Assembly: GCA_046290465.1 (NCBI GenBank)
Contig: JBKAGP010000001.1
Location: 1,440,001-1,504,000 of the forward strand
Direction: 5' to 3'
DNA from: Planctomycetota bacterium
Lineage (GTDB): Bacteria > Planctomycetota > UBA1135 > UBA2386
DNA length: 64,000 nucleotides
Position numbers and translations under genes: made by a program. Below the pieces are notes generated by a model, which was not told the origin of the DNA, did no database searches, and worked only from the letters and a program-made list of their open reading frames with translations. How positions within the stretch are numbered: position 1 is the stretch's first letter; each line of letters opens with the position of its first letter. Positions 47,217-52,900 of the stretch are shown in pieces.

Positions 47217-47798
47217 ATGACCGAAATCACCAACGAACTCGTCCTCAAGGCCCAGACGGGCGACGAGGCGGCCAACCGGGCCATCGTCGAGGGCCTGCAG
47301 CGGCCGGTGATCGCAACGATCTATCGCTTTCTCGGACCCGGCTACCGACGCGAGGTCGAGGACCTCGCCCAAGAGGTGTTCCTGAAGGTGTTCCGAGCCA
47401 TCCAGAAGTTCGATCCGTCCCGCGCGAAGTTCACGACGTGGGTCTACACGTTCGTTCGCAACCACTGCTTCGACGTGCTCAAGAAGCGTCGCCTGAAGAC
47501 CACCAGCATGAGCTCGGTCGAGACGGACGACAACGACCGCGACTTCGCCGACCGGCGTGAGCTGCAGCCGACCGAGGACGCCGAGAACACCGAGCTCGGC
47601 CGGCGCATCGGCGAGGCGCTGTCGACGCTCGGCGAGGACCAGCGCATGGTGTTCGTGCTGCGCGAATACGAGCAGCTCGACTACCGCGAGATCGCGTCGA
47701 TCACCGGCGTCAACGAGGGCACGGTGAAGTCGCGCCTGTTCCGCGCCAAGGAATCGCTGCGCAAGCAGCTGGCCCCCTACCTGGAGGCCGGCGCATGA
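47217..47798 (+). CDS. ECF sigma factor
   Basis: EDLAQEVF, FTTWVY, LDYREIA, GTVKSRLFRA. Confidence 0.93.
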   Translation: MTEITNELVLKAQTGDEAANRAIVEGLQRPVIATIYRFLGPGYRREVEDLAQEVFLKVFRAIQKFDPSRAKFTTWVYTFVRNHCFDVLKKRRLKTTSMSSVETDDNDRDFADRRELQPTEDAENTELGRRIGEALSTLGEDQRMVFVLREYEQLDYREIASITGVNEGTVKSRLFRAKESLRKQLAPYLEAGA

Positions 47799-48655
47799 GC
47801 CCCCACGACCAACACGAACACGAGCCGGACCGGAACGGGGCGGAACGAAACGGGGCGGACCGAAACGGGGCGGGCGGCGAGCCGCACTGGAACGAACTGG
47901 ACGCGGTGCGCCGCTTCCCGTCCGAGGACGAATGGCTCGATCTGCCGATGCCGACCGACGAGCAGCTGCCCGACAGCGAACTCGACGGCAACGACGGCAG
48001 TTCGTTCGCCGACCGCGTGCTGCAGGCCAACCGCGAGGAGCGCGAGCTCGACGAGCGGCTGGCCGAGCTCGACCGGCTGCTGCCGCGCGAGCTGCTGCTA
48101 CAGTTTCGCGCGCCGGAGCCGAGCGCTTCGTTCGCGGCCGACACGACCGATCGCGCGCAGCAGGACCGGCGGCAACGCTGGGCCGAGACGCTGTCGCGCT
48201 ACGTCGCGCCGGAGCCATCGCCCGAGTTCGTCAACCGCACGCTCGCCGCGCTGCAGGACGACCAGGACCCGACCCGCGCGGCGGCCCAGCAAGGCAGAAC
48301 CCAGCAAGGCAGGTCCCAGCAAGGCAAAGCACCGACCAGCGCGACCACGACGACGCCCCGTCGGGCGGGCCCCTCGGCCGGCTCTCGGTCCAGCAACCGC
48401 ACCAACCTGCCGATGTGGGGCCTGCTGTCCGCTGCGGCCGCGGCGCTGCTGTGGCTGACGCTGACCGATCGCACCCGGCAACCGCTGGAGGTGCGCATCG
48501 CCGACCAGGCCCCGACCTCGGTCGCCTACGTCGACTCGACCACGCCGATGGCCGCGATCCTGTCGCACGTCGCCGACGACGAAGAGCCGCACGCGCTGTT
48601 CGACGAGCCGGTCGACGGTCTCTGGCTGGTCGGCGAAAGCGGGGAGCTGCGATGA
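47795..48655 (+). CDS. Putative anti-sigma factor (single TM)
   Basis: ATGA overlap with the ECF sigma; two APEPSxxF repeats, one TM. Confidence 0.65.
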   Translation: MSPHDQHEHEPDRNGAERNGADRNGAGGEPHWNELDAVRRFPSEDEWLDLPMPTDEQLPDSELDGNDGSSFADRVLQANREERELDERLAELDRLLPRELLLQFRAPEPSASFAADTTDRAQQDRRQRWAETLSRYVAPEPSPEFVNRTLAALQDDQDPTRAAAQQGRTQQGRSQQGKAPTSATTTTPRRAGPSAGSRSSNRTNLPMWGLLSAAAAALLWLTLTDRTRQPLEVRIADQAPTSVAYVDSTTPMAAILSHVADDEEPHALFDEPVDGLWLVGESGELR

Positions 48656-50112
48656 AGCTCGGTCCGGCGATCCTGCGGCTGGCGCTGGCAACGGCGCCCG
48701 CCTGGTCCGGCAGCGCGGTGCTCGCGCAGACCGAGGCGTCCGCGGACGCGATCGAGCGACTGCTCGCCGAGCTCGACGAACGGTTCGAGCGCGGCGACGT
48801 GCAGGGCTACCTGGCGCGGTTCGAACCCGACCACCGCGGCGCCGTCGCGATGGCCGGCCGGCACCTCGAACGCCTGGTCGCGGTCAGCAAGCGGCGCAGC
48901 CGCAGCTCGCGCATCTTCGCCGGTCCGAGCCAGGTCGGCAGCCGCACGCTGGTGCGCGTCCGCCACGACCTCGAACTGACAATCGGCGCCGGCGCGCCAC
49001 GCAAGTTCACCGAGGACTCCTACCTCGCGGTTCGCGTCGAGGACGGCGAGCTGATCCCGACGTTCGCCGTCGAGATGCCGCCGGCGATGAACTGCGTCAA
49101 GGGCAACAAGTTCAAGTGCCCGCCGTGCAACTACGAGATCGGCGGCGTCGACGGCTTCCTGTGCGTGCCGCTGCGCCAGGAGAAGTCGCTCGCCCTCGAG
49201 TCGGCGAGCTTCTACCTGATCGGCACCGGCGTGGTCTGCGACGTGCACGTCCAGGTGCAGAGCGAGCCGCAAAAGGCGCAGGTGGCGGCGCGCCGTCTGG
49301 CCGAGGCGTTCGCCAAGATCGAGCCGACCGCCGAGGTCGGCCTGGCGACCGCGTGGGCGCCGCCGATGCACGCCAAGGATCCGCCGTCGGGAATGGACAG
49401 CGCCCGCGTCGTCGTCAAGCTGCCGCAGGACAGCCCGAAGGCCGACGGCGAACGCACGATCTTCCACGTGGTGGCGTTCGGCGGCCTGCAGCACGTGCTG
49501 CTGGTGCGCGGCAGCACCGCGTCGCTGGCCGCGCACGCGGCGGCGCTCGACGCGTTGTTCCAGAGCTACATGCTGCTCGAGGTCGACTGCGACCTCGCCG
49601 AGGCGGCGGCGCGGCCGCTGCGCCATCACATCGGCGGCGCGTTCGACGGCAGCCGCTACGACAACCGCCGCTATGGCGTGACGTTCACCGGCCCGAAGGG
49701 CTGGCGCCCCGAGCACCGCATCGGCGGCGCGCGGTTCCGCGCCCGCTGGACTGGCCCGGACGGCAGCCAGCTGTGGCTGATCGGCTACGGCGTGCCGGCG
49801 GGCATGCAGGCCTGGACCAGCAAGCTGGCCGATCGCTGGATCGCGCACCATTGCGACAAGCACGGGCTGAAGGTCGCCGACCCGCAGCCCGAGGGGCTCG
49901 ACGACGACTGGCACGAGTCGGCGGCCGGCGCGCTCGAGCGTTCGTGCGTGCTGACCTGTGCCGAGCCGTCGTCGCCGACGACGCCGCGGCGCCGGGTCCT
50001 GCACGTGCAGCTGCACGACGACCTGCTGCTGATCGTCGACGGCTTCGGCGGCGGCAAACAGGCCGAACGCGCGGTGTTGACGACGCTCGGCTCGCTGGCC
50101 CGCAAGCGCTGA
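48652..50112 (+). CDS. Secreted hypothetical protein with CPPC motif
   Basis: Signal peptide, ATGA overlap with upstream gene, Cys-rich central segment. Confidence 0.75.
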   Translation: MKLGPAILRLALATAPAWSGSAVLAQTEASADAIERLLAELDERFERGDVQGYLARFEPDHRGAVAMAGRHLERLVAVSKRRSRSSRIFAGPSQVGSRTLVRVRHDLELTIGAGAPRKFTEDSYLAVRVEDGELIPTFAVEMPPAMNCVKGNKFKCPPCNYEIGGVDGFLCVPLRQEKSLALESASFYLIGTGVVCDVHVQVQSEPQKAQVAARRLAEAFAKIEPTAEVGLATAWAPPMHAKDPPSGMDSARVVVKLPQDSPKADGERTIFHVVAFGGLQHVLLVRGSTASLAAHAAALDALFQSYMLLEVDCDLAEAAARPLRHHIGGAFDGSRYDNRRYGVTFTGPKGWRPEHRIGGARFRARWTGPDGSQLWLIGYGVPAGMQAWTSKLADRWIAHHCDKHGLKVADPQPEGLDDDWHESAAGALERSCVLTCAEPSSPTTPRRRVLHVQLHDDLLLIVDGFGGGKQAERAVLTTLGSLARKR

Positions 50113-50169
50113 CGAGAACGCGACCGGCCGAAGGCTGACCGGCACCCGCGCCGCGGCTAGACTGCCGGC

Positions 50170-50529
50170 GTGAACATTCCCGCCGGCATGCAGGTGGCCT
50201 TCCAGGGCAAGGCCGCGTCGATGCGCGAGATCGCGCAGCAGCTCCAGCAGGCGGGCATCCGCACGGCCTCCGGACCGCTGCCCGGCGGCTGAGGCCCGCA
50301 CGCCTGGCTCGCGGTCGCGAGCGACGAACGGCAGCGCGCGATGGACGTGCACCAGCAGCACCTCGACGACATGGTGCGCCGGCAGGGCCTGCCGGTGCAC
50401 GACATCGTCACCGACCTCAGCGCCGAGCAGACCCAGTGCCCGGCGTGCCTGACCATGTTCGCGACCGAGGGCCGCACGCGCTGTCCCGACTGTGGCCTCA
50501 ACTTCGGTGGCCTCAACTTCGGCGGCTGA
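50170..50529 (+). CDS. Probable small selenoprotein (Sec at codon 41, GG-U-GP) with C-terminal zinc ribbon
   Basis: In-frame TGA at 50290-50292 between two high-GC3 segments in the same frame; SECIS-like hairpin immediately downstream; CPAC...CPDC. Confidence 0.8.
50293..50326 (+). promoter_or_regulatory. Bacterial SECIS-like element
   Basis: Stem GCTCGC (50307-50312) / GCGAGC (50317-50322) with GGTC loop, 20 nt after the TGA. Confidence 0.75.
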
Positions 50530-50533
50530 AACG

Positions 50534-52900
50534 ATGCGCATCCTCTCCCTGTCGTTCGCCGCCCTCGTCGTCGCCGCCGCCGCCTCGGCCCAGAAGATGG
50601 CCTGGCAGATCCCGGAGCGCGGCGCGCACGTGTTCGATCGCGTGACGCGCCGCTTCGAGGTCACGCCCCCGCCGTCGAAGTACCTGCCGCTGGTGGCCGT
50701 GCACGGCGGTCGCAGCGCGACGCCGCACCGGTGGCGCTACTTCACCTGCGCGCGCAACCAGATCCCGAAGGGCTTCGCCGCCCCCGACTACGACGACTCC
50801 GGCTGGTTCGTCGGCGAAGGCGGCTTCGGCCCGACGCCCGGCCAGACCGGCAACCACCGCACCGCCTGGAAGAACGACGTCTGCTGCCTGCGCACCAGCG
50901 TCGACCTCGGCCGCAGCAAGCCGAAGGCGCTGTGGTTCCAACTCGACCACGACGACGGCGTGCGCATCTGGCTCAACGGCGAACTGGTCGTCGCCGACGA
51001 CGGCTATGGCGTCTCTCGCGAGTACTTCGTCACCGGCAGGGCGCTCGACGCCTGGCAGCGCGGCGACAACCTGCTGGCGGTCCAGTGCAGCAACGTCGGC
51101 GGCGCGCAGTACCTCGACGTCGGGCTCAAGTACTTCCCGCGGCTGGCGCGCGGCCAGCGCCGCGTCGAGGACCTCAAGAAGGCCCTGCGCGACGAACGCA
51201 ACCAGGCCAACCGGGTCCGGCGCGCGCTGTTCGGACCGTTCCGCCCGCCGGCGATGCTGCTGCAGGGCGAGCTCGACGAGGACGCCACCCACGTCGTGCA
51301 CCGCCCGGTCGACCTCCGCGAGGTCGCCTGGTGGGTCGCGACCGACCTGCGCTGCGGTCCGTTCGGCGGCGCGGTCAAGCTCGACGCGCCGCGGATGTGG
51401 GAGCTCGGCGACCTGCGCGTGCGCGGCCGGGCGAGCGCCGTCGACGAACTCGGCTGGCAGACGATCAAGGTCAAGCTGGAGACGACCAAGGAGCCGGATC
51501 GCGGCAAGGACAGTAAGCGCTACATGCAGCACTCGGTGCTGCGCTTCGTGCACCACGGCTTCGAGGGCGACCTGTTGATCAAGCGCCGCCTCGACGTGCG
51601 GCCCGAGGGCACGCGCGTGGTGACGTTCGAGAGCAGCCTCGAGGGCACCATCACGCGCGGCGAGGACTTCAAGGAGGTCGCCGCCGGCGTCGTGCAGGAC
51701 GAGACCTGGAAGCTGAGCAGCACCCACGAGAACCAGGACACGGCGTTCCGGCTGCTGGTGAAGAGGGCGATCGAGAAGGGCGTCGCGCGGCTGCGCGAGC
51801 AACTCGGCAAGCCCAACGGCGAACGGCTGCTGAAGTCCGACGGCCCGAAGGCCGCGCGCAGCTACCACTCGGGCCGGCTCGCGATCGGCCTGCTGGCGCT
51901 GATCAAGGGTGGCCTGCCGAAGGACGACGAGGTGCTGCAACGGTGCCTGCAGGAGCTGCGCAAGCGCCCGCTGATCGACACCTACACGCTCGGCAACGCG
52001 CTGATGGCGCTCGAGAGCTACTACCAGCCGGCGACCGAGATCAGCCTGCTGCGGTCCGGTTCGATCGACCGTCCGCAGAAGCGTCAGGTGCCCGACGACG
52101 ACCAGGCGCTGATGCAGAAGTGGACCGACCGGCTGATGCAGAACATCGACACGCGCGTCGATCCCGGCTACCTGGTGCGGTTCAACTACGTGCGCGGCGG
52201 TCGCTTCGACAACAGCGTGCACCAGTACGGGTTGCTCGGCCTCTACGCCGCCCACCTGTGCGGCATCGAGGTCACGCCGACGACGTGGGAGGCCGCCGCC
52301 AACCACCTGCTCGACGTGCAGGAGGAGGACGGCAGCAAGCTGACGCTGCGGCTGATGGACTACCGCACGCACAACAAGCTGCAGTTCGATCCCGACGCCA
52401 GCGTCACGGTCGCCAGTTCGCCGAGCCGCGCCAACGGCTGGAGCTACACCAGCCCCAAGCACGGCGGCACCGAGTCGGGCATCTGGGGCAGCATGACCTG
52501 CGCCGGCATCACCGGCCTCGCGATCTGCCAGGCGGCGCTGCTCGACTACGAGGACGTCAAGCGCCGCAAGCTGCAGAACGACGCGTCGCGGGCCCGCAAC
52601 GACGGCTTCGCATGGCTCGCCGAGAACCTGACGGTGCGCTACCACCCCGGCGCGATGACGCGCCAGCGCCGCTGGCTCTACTACTACCTCTACGGCCTCG
52701 AGCGGGCCGCGCTGCTGAGCGGCGTCGCGCTGATCCAGGAGCGTGATTGGTTCTTCGAGGGGGCGTTGATGCTGGTGCTCGCGCAGCTCGAGAACGGCGA
52801 CTGGCCGGGCGAGCTGACCGCGGACGAGGCCGTCGAGCGGAATGCGATGGCGATCCTGTTCTTGAAGCAGAGCACCAGCCCGGTGCTGACCGGCAAGTGA
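50534..52900 (+). CDS. Secreted protein: galactose-binding-like domain plus alpha/alpha-toroid (prenyltransferase/squalene oxidase repeat-like) domain
   Basis: DHDDGVRIWLNG; DNSVHQYGLLGL, GSMTCAG, YYYLYGLER, QLENGDW. Confidence 0.75.
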   Translation: MRILSLSFAALVVAAAASAQKMAWQIPERGAHVFDRVTRRFEVTPPPSKYLPLVAVHGGRSATPHRWRYFTCARNQIPKGFAAPDYDDSGWFVGEGGFGPTPGQTGNHRTAWKNDVCCLRTSVDLGRSKPKALWFQLDHDDGVRIWLNGELVVADDGYGVSREYFVTGRALDAWQRGDNLLAVQCSNVGGAQYLDVGLKYFPRLARGQRRVEDLKKALRDERNQANRVRRALFGPFRPPAMLLQGELDEDATHVVHRPVDLREVAWWVATDLRCGPFGGAVKLDAPRMWELGDLRVRGRASAVDELGWQTIKVKLETTKEPDRGKDSKRYMQHSVLRFVHHGFEGDLLIKRRLDVRPEGTRVVTFESSLEGTITRGEDFKEVAAGVVQDETWKLSSTHENQDTAFRLLVKRAIEKGVARLREQLGKPNGERLLKSDGPKAARSYHSGRLAIGLLALIKGGLPKDDEVLQRCLQELRKRPLIDTYTLGNALMALESYYQPATEISLLRSGSIDRPQKRQVPDDDQALMQKWTDRLMQNIDTRVDPGYLVRFNYVRGGRFDNSVHQYGLLGLYAAHLCGIEVTPTTWEAAANHLLDVQEEDGSKLTLRLMDYRTHNKLQFDPDASVTVASSPSRANGWSYTSPKHGGTESGIWGSMTCAGITGLAICQAALLDYEDVKRRKLQNDASRARNDGFAWLAENLTVRYHPGAMTRQRRWLYYYLYGLERAALLSGVALIQERDWFFEGALMLVLAQLENGDWPGELTADEAVERNAMAILFLKQSTSPVLTGK

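Follow-up and report, generated by a model that had tools for sequence, protein, structure and literature searches.

The window analyzed here is a stretch of 64,000 nucleotides (nt) from the genome of a Planctomycetota bacterium (assembly GCA_046290465.1, contig JBKAGP010000001.1, positions 1,440,001 to 1,504,000), and the gene of interest lies on its forward strand at 50170-50529. It consists of 119 codons plus a terminal TGA (50527-50529) and begins at GTG 50170, the first possible start, with a sole in-frame TGA at 50290-50292, the codon of residue 41. The frame is closed upstream by an in-frame TAG at 50158-50160, 3 codons before the GTG. ATG 50188 (Met7) is an alternative start, and some database homologs are called from that Met. 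Just downstream of the internal TGA lies a potential hairpin with a GGUC loop (50307-50322, forward strand), and the predicted protein comprises an N-terminal domain (50188-50382) and a C-terminal zinc ribbon (50437-50493). An earlier note on this DNA had described a single frame broken at TGA 50290, a GGTC-loop hairpin 20 nt downstream, and a 119-residue read-through product, and this layout is exact. Taken with the comparisons described below, 50170-50529 is very probably one selenoprotein gene of 119 residues in which the UGA at 50290-50292 specifies selenocysteine (Sec).

The window alone would not carry this conclusion. A loose scan of the 6.59-Mb genome for a TGA that lies in an open frame and has a hairpin downstream (stem of at least 5 base pairs (bp), GGT[CT] loop) returned 58 cases, most of them in Arg/Ala-rich junk frames of high-GC DNA. 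With 58 such chance-like configurations in one genome, the local arrangement is not beyond chance, and the case rests on comparison with relatives.

A six-frame search of 60 related genomes and the window's own (61 genomes) found the gene in 38. One match, a contig-end fragment covering residues 88-115 only (G005), was left out, and 37 loci were taken, one per genome. The orthologs in these loci align over residues 1-113, across the TGA, with protein identities of 33-80%. The codon aligned to residue 41 is TGA at 33 of the 37 loci and TGG at the other 4. The Gly codon directly before it varies (GGC 10, GGG 4, GGA 2, GGT 16), and the TGA is constant. Residues that are kept while their codons change are found both upstream of the TGA (G13, E20, L25, and P38) and downstream of it (A57, A85, P91, A92, G109, and L110). 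This synonymous variation on both sides indicates that both halves are translated in this frame.

The family was widened with a genome scan using one genome per species (80 loci) and a metagenome scan that provided an independent set (80 loci). Its range now takes in other Planctomycetota, Desulfobulbaceae (cable bacteria, Desulfurivibrio, and others), and Binatia. The members fall into forms with TGA (U-forms), a Cys codon (C-forms), or TGG (W-forms) at the aligned position. The genome scan gave 34 U-forms, 32 C-forms, and 14 W-forms, with one locus (L070) put among the W-forms by eye; merged with the first 37 loci, it yields 101 unique proteins (54 U, 32 C, and 15 W). In the metagenome scan 75 loci could be classified (31 U, 31 C, and 13 W), with 2 truncated and 3 unclassified. 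The C-forms and W-forms are single unbroken open reading frames (ORFs) of 107-131 amino acids (aa).

Exchange of Sec and Cys within conserved flanks is the standard mark of a genuine selenoprotein family. Example contexts in this family are GCGSG-U-GTKLWLAVA(S), GDGCGS-C-APKLWLAVAS, and CGQGC-C-GPELLL. Among unique contexts, a second Cys lies no more than 6 residues upstream in all 46 C-forms, in 17 of 67 U-forms, and in none of the 17 W-forms. Across the wider superfamily Sec or Cys occupies this position, frequently preceded by another Cys (CxxxU, CxxxC, or CC), so the ancestral role was most likely thiol/selenol redox chemistry or metal ligation.

A second body of evidence comes from the hairpin, the candidate selenocysteine insertion sequence (SECIS). 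It has a 6-bp stem, GCUCGC/GCGAGC (GCTCGC at 50307-50312 and GCGAGC at 50317-50322), and a GGUC loop (50313-50316) that starts 20 nt past the A of the TGA. The element is contained in the coding sequence, where it encodes the last base of Trp46 and L47-A48-V49-A50-S51. Its codons are invariant across the 37 loci (CTC 37/37, GCG 35/35, GTC 37/37, and GCG 36/36). None of 12 control columns, which are conserved residues with 4- or 6-fold degenerate codons, is invariant in the same loci; for example, L110 is encoded by CTC 16, CTG 16, CTA 1, and TTG 4 times and A92 by GCG 13, GCC 17, GCA 2, and GCT 4 times. The comparison shows selection on the hairpin at the RNA level. The RNAalifold consensus is exactly the 6-bp hairpin, and within its stem there are one-sided compatible changes from U-A to U.G in 16 sequences and from C-G to U.G in 3, with a U.C mismatch in 5. 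The hairpin was also considered as a dispersed repeat and rejected as such: the genome (6.6 Mb) contains the exact 16-mer only 3 times, twice outside this gene and there in unrelated coding contexts.

The presence of the hairpin follows the UGA. A 12-nt core begins at +18 from the T of the TGA in 50 of the 54 unique U-forms and at +21 in 2 more. Of the remaining U-forms, L014 has one substitution in the 3' arm, and L108, which is Desulfobulbus-type, has another 7-bp hairpin with an AGGU loop. The core is likewise found in 30 of 31 U-forms from metagenomes, and it is found in none of the C-forms (0/32 in the genome scan and 0/31 in metagenomes). This includes C-forms with the identical WLAVA peptide (L091, L166, L171, and L177), which use CTG/CTT, GCT/GCA/GCG, GTG, and GCC/GCG codons and have NGUG loops. 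Five of the 6 stem pairs are dictated by the amino acid sequence; the features kept specifically in the U-forms are the fourth pair (C:G) and the two bases, G and C, needed to give a GGUC loop.

The genome also has what is needed to read UGA as Sec, with selA, selB, selD, and one tRNA-Sec with anticodon TCA all present. Across the 61 genomes selB scores above the curated cut-off in 58 and selA in 60. The selD gene of the window's genome (L003, G000:C1:1309619-1310557, minus strand) adjoins selA (C1:1310644-1311717) and itself has an in-frame TGA (...SSAG-U-AAKLPPG). ARAGORN additionally lists a tRNA-like gene of 88 nt, with gatc as a four-base anticodon, at G000:C1:4452296-4452383 (plus strand); this may be a false positive.

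A positive control was picked up by the same hairpin scan. This is a thioredoxin-fold gene with the motif SYT-U-PPF (L213/L214, G000:C1:6461070-6461909, minus strand) that matches T4_deiodinase (PF00837) with 31.5 bits against a cut-off of 27. Its in-frame TGA is followed by GCA-GGTC-TGC, and the loop starts 24 nt past the UGA, compared with 20 nt in the window gene. All 46 deiodinase-like matches carry the TGA, and they occur in 33 of the 61 genomes. Close orthologs keep GCAGGTCTGC in 17 of 17 cases, and other subfamilies have GCC-GGTC-GGC. A GGUC apex on stems that vary is therefore the usual SECIS feature of these bacteria, and it is also present in the window hairpin. A weaker second deiodinase-like paralog is found in the window's genome at C1:2322080-2322592. 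In one related genome the zinc-ribbon selenoprotein gene is preceded, at a distance of about 135 nt and in the same orientation, by a deiodinase-like gene (G040:C1:3783368-3784278, minus strand, L039/L233), an adjacent pair of Sec genes that is not seen in the window's genome.

The core claim of the earlier note, a Sec codon with a SECIS just downstream, thus finds support in the computational tests that the note itself had proposed. Homologs have TGA or Cys aligned to position 41 in both the genome and metagenome sets, RNA folding recovers the hairpin, the hairpin is invariant at synonymous sites, and the sel genes and tRNA-Sec are in place. Actual Sec insertion is what we infer from this conservation of the codon, the hairpin, and the decoding machinery. 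In the proposed mechanism SelB carrying Sec-tRNA(UCA) would bind the GGUC-loop hairpin at 50307-50322, and this binding would position the tRNA on the UGA, from which the loop is 20 nt away.

In the predicted product, Sec41 lies exposed in the loop between beta2 and beta3 of a small beta-alpha-beta-beta-alpha domain, after which come a long helix and a four-Cys ribbon. An AlphaFold2 model built from a 60-sequence alignment has a mean predicted local distance difference test score (pLDDT) of 88.4, and residues 7-71 (50188-50382) form one domain across the TGA with pLDDT 90-96. The elements are beta1 (7-14), alpha1 (15-27), beta2 (32-37), the loop with Sec41 (38-43), beta3 (44-50), alpha2 (51-71), a linker, and the ribbon. 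The zinc ribbon that the earlier note had also recognized is a probable one at the C-terminus. It corresponds to the CPAC...CPDC segment at 50437-50493, two CxxC knuckles about 11 residues apart whose Cys residues (C90, C93, C105, and C108) are invariant in the 60 aligned homologs. The Pfam matches here, Zn_ribbon_5 (E 1.9e-4) and Zn_ribbon_3 (E 2e-3), reach 21.5 and 18.0 bits and are under the gathering scores of 29.3 and 27.

The fold of the N-terminal domain has several counterparts. The closest are the EscJ/PrgK ring-building motifs, which share the topology of residues 6-65 (Z 9.3, root-mean-square deviation (rmsd) 1.0-1.4 over 57 residues, using VIA-align on the model). A weaker likeness is to 2hfv (Z 6.5, rmsd 3.1 over 62 residues), which is under the tool's distinctive level, and PII/ACT-like chains share the topology with Z of about 5. 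Foldseek against the PDB gave nothing at E<=0.001 and only weak PII/PstA/ACT matches (E>=0.017), and a sequence-profile search of the PDB gave no significant match. Protein-atlas neighbors of a Trp-form homolog (P0008) include clusters carrying DUF2007 (scores 0.84-0.87) and zinc-ribbon clusters, both weak leads only. The "DUF2007-like" label of the earlier note may hold at the level of fold resemblance only, with 2hfv taken as a representative of DUF2007; it does not hold at the level of sequence, where Pfam DUF2007 (PF09413) has no match at E<=10 with the read-through protein or either half. We know of no DUF2007, PII-like, or ring-building family with Sec in the beta2-beta3 loop.

A signal peptide is not evident when the translated sequence is read by eye. 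The best guess at function is a small cytoplasmic redox-active or metal-binding protein in which the loop selenol or thiol would be the reactive group and the ribbon a binding module. In the window's own clade the Sec would act alone because a partner Cys is absent. Other architectures may exist in the family: one homolog (P0003) has a partial tandem duplication of the N-terminal domain, and among the many homologs of 160-197 aa some have two separate profile matches, a pattern that points to duplication or fusion.

The W-forms are the most interesting lead to come from this work. Close full-length database homologs read PGGWEPRAWLAVAS, with Trp at the residue-41 position, and yet the W-forms keep the exact hairpin at the same spacing (15/15 unique genome loci and 13/13 metagenome loci). 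Among 22 unique W-forms, with pairwise protein identities of 47-100% (median 65%), each hairpin codon is conserved in 22/22, compared with 1 of 17 degenerate control columns that is invariant; our own count gives a hypergeometric probability of about 8e-4 for 4/4 vs 1/17, a value that overstates the significance since the sequences are related. The W-forms nest within the U clade (36 rows, 22 U and 14 W), with support of 98 in the Shimodaira–Hasegawa-like approximate likelihood ratio test (SH-aLRT). Recurrent toggling between TGA and TGG is not claimed: parsimony on a quick tree counts 5 changes, but the approximately unbiased (AU) test does not reject a single W clade (p 0.172). Single W clade or not, the hairpin was evidently kept while the W-forms diverged. 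No Cys form is placed within the W-form clade in the tree. The earlier note had named Trp in homologs among the signs that would point to a simple nonsense mutation. The W clade formally presents that situation but does not overturn the Sec reading, given TGA in 54 unique sequences, the Cys forms, and the SECIS kept in the W-forms.

W-form genomes have selA and selB, and three of them (G024, G029, and G036) keep TGA in their deiodinase-like gene. tRNA-Sec(TCA) is present in G016, G029, and G036 and was not found in G024, a genome that is 69% complete. The presence of selA and selB was considered as a trait separating U-form from W-form genomes and does not do so, as essentially all 61 genomes have both. 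One metagenome locus (L167, residues GRPQYGWLAVAAAD) is the sole Arg (CGG) form found at the Sec position. Here the 5' arm and loop (CTCGCGGTC) are still in place, the 3' arm is lost (GCC GCC), and the whole looks like a decaying SECIS fossil.

It is possible, though on balance unlikely, that UGG with an intact SECIS is partly decoded as Sec in the W clade, a natural form of Sec/Trp dual coding. SelB on the hairpin would deliver tRNA-Sec(UCA), which would wobble-pair with UGG. In the work of Xu et al. 2013 (PMC3834832), a UGG ahead of a SECIS was read partly as Sec by the E. coli machinery, which gave a Sec/Trp mixture without truncation; in that system the protein was recombinant rat thioredoxin reductase 1 (TrxR1), selA, selB, and selC were overexpressed, and the wobble was by native tRNA-Sec. 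Sec decoding of UGG would explain the invariant hairpin sites in 22/22 W-forms, the lack of Cys replacement in the clade, and the decayed 3' arm of the Arg form, and if true it would avoid truncation when selenium is scarce. Other roles for the hairpin in W-forms may include SelB binding, pausing, or mRNA stability. The window gene itself uses UGA, and the UGG proposal concerns only its close relatives. A literature search found no paper that cites PMC3834832 by title and also mentions UGG.

Several observations weigh against reading the window gene as a selenoprotein gene. A catalytic Sec would not typically give way to Trp, as it does in a clade of close homologs, and no partner Cys lies near the Sec in the window's own clade. 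No compensatory covariation was seen in the hairpin, in the aligned sequences or by RNAalifold, because the hairpin sequence does not vary. A longer stem (columns 20-23 with 40-43) was tried and rejected, as it pairs in only 35-69% of sequences. Rfam searched over 50100-50600 at E<=10 returned no SECIS model, only chance small RNA and microRNA matches. The closest curated family, NCBIfam NF049953.1 ("ribbon_DG_selen", zinc ribbon-containing (seleno)protein DG), matches with E 1.1e-13, window residues 12-113 aligning to profile positions 64-172 of 172, but the score of 51.5 bits is far from the cut-off of 130 and the protein goes unnamed by that model. Finally, the neighboring genes described below have no Pfam matches and provide no functional clue.

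Among the alternatives, reading of the UGA as Trp fares best, although it too is improbable. A near-cognate tRNA-Trp or leakiness stimulated by the hairpin would let ribosomes through; U-forms and W-forms would then yield one and the same Trp-containing protein, and the UGA would only lower expression. The nested Trp-codon clade that keeps the hairpin fits this idea, as it suggests that the hairpin could serve something other than Sec insertion. However, distant homologs have Cys at the position, not Trp, in CxxxC or CC motifs, and the GGUC apex also occurs in a bona fide selenoprotein family of the same genomes. The window genome encodes a single tRNA-Trp (CCA) and lacks a tRNA that would suppress UGA, the gene's own terminator is also TGA, and the Sec machinery is complete.

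Two small genes in place of one are very improbable. Mechanical ORF calling does split the frame, returning only 50170-50292 (40 aa) and, from ATG 50341, a zinc-ribbon ORF of 62 aa (50341-50529, forward strand), and C-terminal fragments of 66-72 aa that cover only profile positions 45-113 are numerous in public protein sets. No start codon is found between the TGA and ATG 50341, and that interval holds W46-A50 (WLAVA), the family's most conserved peptide, which can therefore be made only by reading through the TGA. Met58, encoded by ATG 50341, varies among homologs (M, L, V, or I), the Cys- and Trp-forms are single ORFs, and the structural model folds residues 7-71 as one domain. The 62-aa ORF of gene callers is best regarded as an artefact of stopping at the UGA and not as a separate gene. 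A simple nonsense mutation or assembly error in a pseudogene of a Trp-containing protein, for which TGG in close homologs is one transition from TGA, is scarcely credible given the TGA shared at this codon by 54 unique sequences (33-80% identity, independent assemblies) and 31 metagenome loci, synonymous change in conserved residues on both sides next to a varying Gly codon and an unvarying TGA, and a tree that rules out one recent clonal lineage of TGA forms.

The selenoprotein gene sits in a conserved three-gene cluster. Upstream on the same strand is a gene for a predicted secreted protein of unknown family with no Pfam match (48652-50112), homologs of which adjoin the family gene in 40 of 117 loci (tblastn, window copy included), all within the close clade. 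Downstream, starting 4 nt after the stop, is a gene for a large predicted secreted protein, also of unknown family and with no Pfam match (50534-52900, forward strand); its homologs adjoin the family gene in 42 of the 117 loci by the same measure and stand beside both U- and W-forms. Upstream of the cluster lies an ECF-type sigma factor gene (Sigma70_r2 plus r4_2, 47217-47798, plus strand), followed by an overlapping 286-aa ORF (47217-48655 region, plus strand) that has no Pfam match and is possibly an anti-sigma factor.

Neighborhoods differ elsewhere in the family. In Desulfobulbaceae the gene directly before the family gene, in the same orientation, encodes an AAA_2/ClpB_D2-small (ClpX-like) ATPase at 3 of the 6 loci examined (L099, L117, and L122), an association that is not informative, and at two Electrothrix loci a glyoxalase-family gene follows the "(seleno)protein DG" gene. 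One locus labeled Luminiphilus, and thus gammaproteobacterial (L043, the same as L009, on contig 288 of G003), has the planctomycete-type three-gene cluster at 75% identity. The genome groups in the window's genus, and this metagenome-assembled genome is probably mislabeled or mis-binned.

Literature searches gave no paper on this family. No account of it was found under selenoprotein DG or bacterial zinc-ribbon selenoproteins. Among the papers listed on SECIS elements and selenoproteins in Planctomycetes, none, judged by title and abstract, deals with the window protein, and the passages of Zhang et al. 2006 (PMC1794560) consulted name no such family.

A gene that is invisible to standard gene calling and is also missed by NF049953 implies that the selenoproteomes of these bacteria are undercounted. 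The setting of the predicted residue is unusual as well, since a lone Sec in an exposed loop of a small PII-like or ring-building-like domain joined to a zinc ribbon is not the usual thioredoxin-fold context. The family also provides a natural comparison of three states, UGA, UGG, and UGY, of which the first two go with a kept SECIS and the Cys codons do not. This makes natural reading of UGG by the Sec machinery directly testable.

The window hairpin resembles the E. coli fdhF-type SECIS in lying within the coding sequence shortly 3' of the UGA and in its GGUC apical loop. The apex of the fdhF element is GCA-GGUC-UGC, as it also is in the deiodinase-like gene of the window's genome. The GCUCGC/GCGAGC stem of the window differs from the fdhF type, only 6 bp are conserved, and a lower stem is unsupported.

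The protein itself can be compared with NF049953, with which it shares a central domain, a C-terminal CPxC...CPxC ribbon, and a Sec or Cys placed 5 residues before beta3. The match to this model (E 1.1e-13) thus also counts in favor of a selenoprotein. True members of NF049953 include Cys forms and the TGA form L108, which has its own hairpin. The members in Desulfobulbaceae are 172-178 aa long, score 204-219 bits, and have an extra N-terminal ribbon (YCPxC...CxxC). In contrast, the window protein is without the N-terminal part of about 60 residues and its ribbon, in a frame that opens 3 codons before GTG 50170, and the window clade has a lone Sec without a partner Cys and another SECIS sequence. 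As judged by these matches, the window protein is a shorter, divergent relative of a partly curated superfamily and not categorically new. The earlier note had placed it outside the classic selenoenzyme families; it does fall below the NF049953 cut-off, but a related family is already curated in NCBIfam.

A final comparison concerns the close relatives with a Trp codon. Like the engineered E. coli system of PMC3834832, they present UGG ahead of a SECIS, which in the engineered case is a functional one. In contrast to that system, the combination of UGG and SECIS in this family is natural and is conserved in 22 unique sequences.

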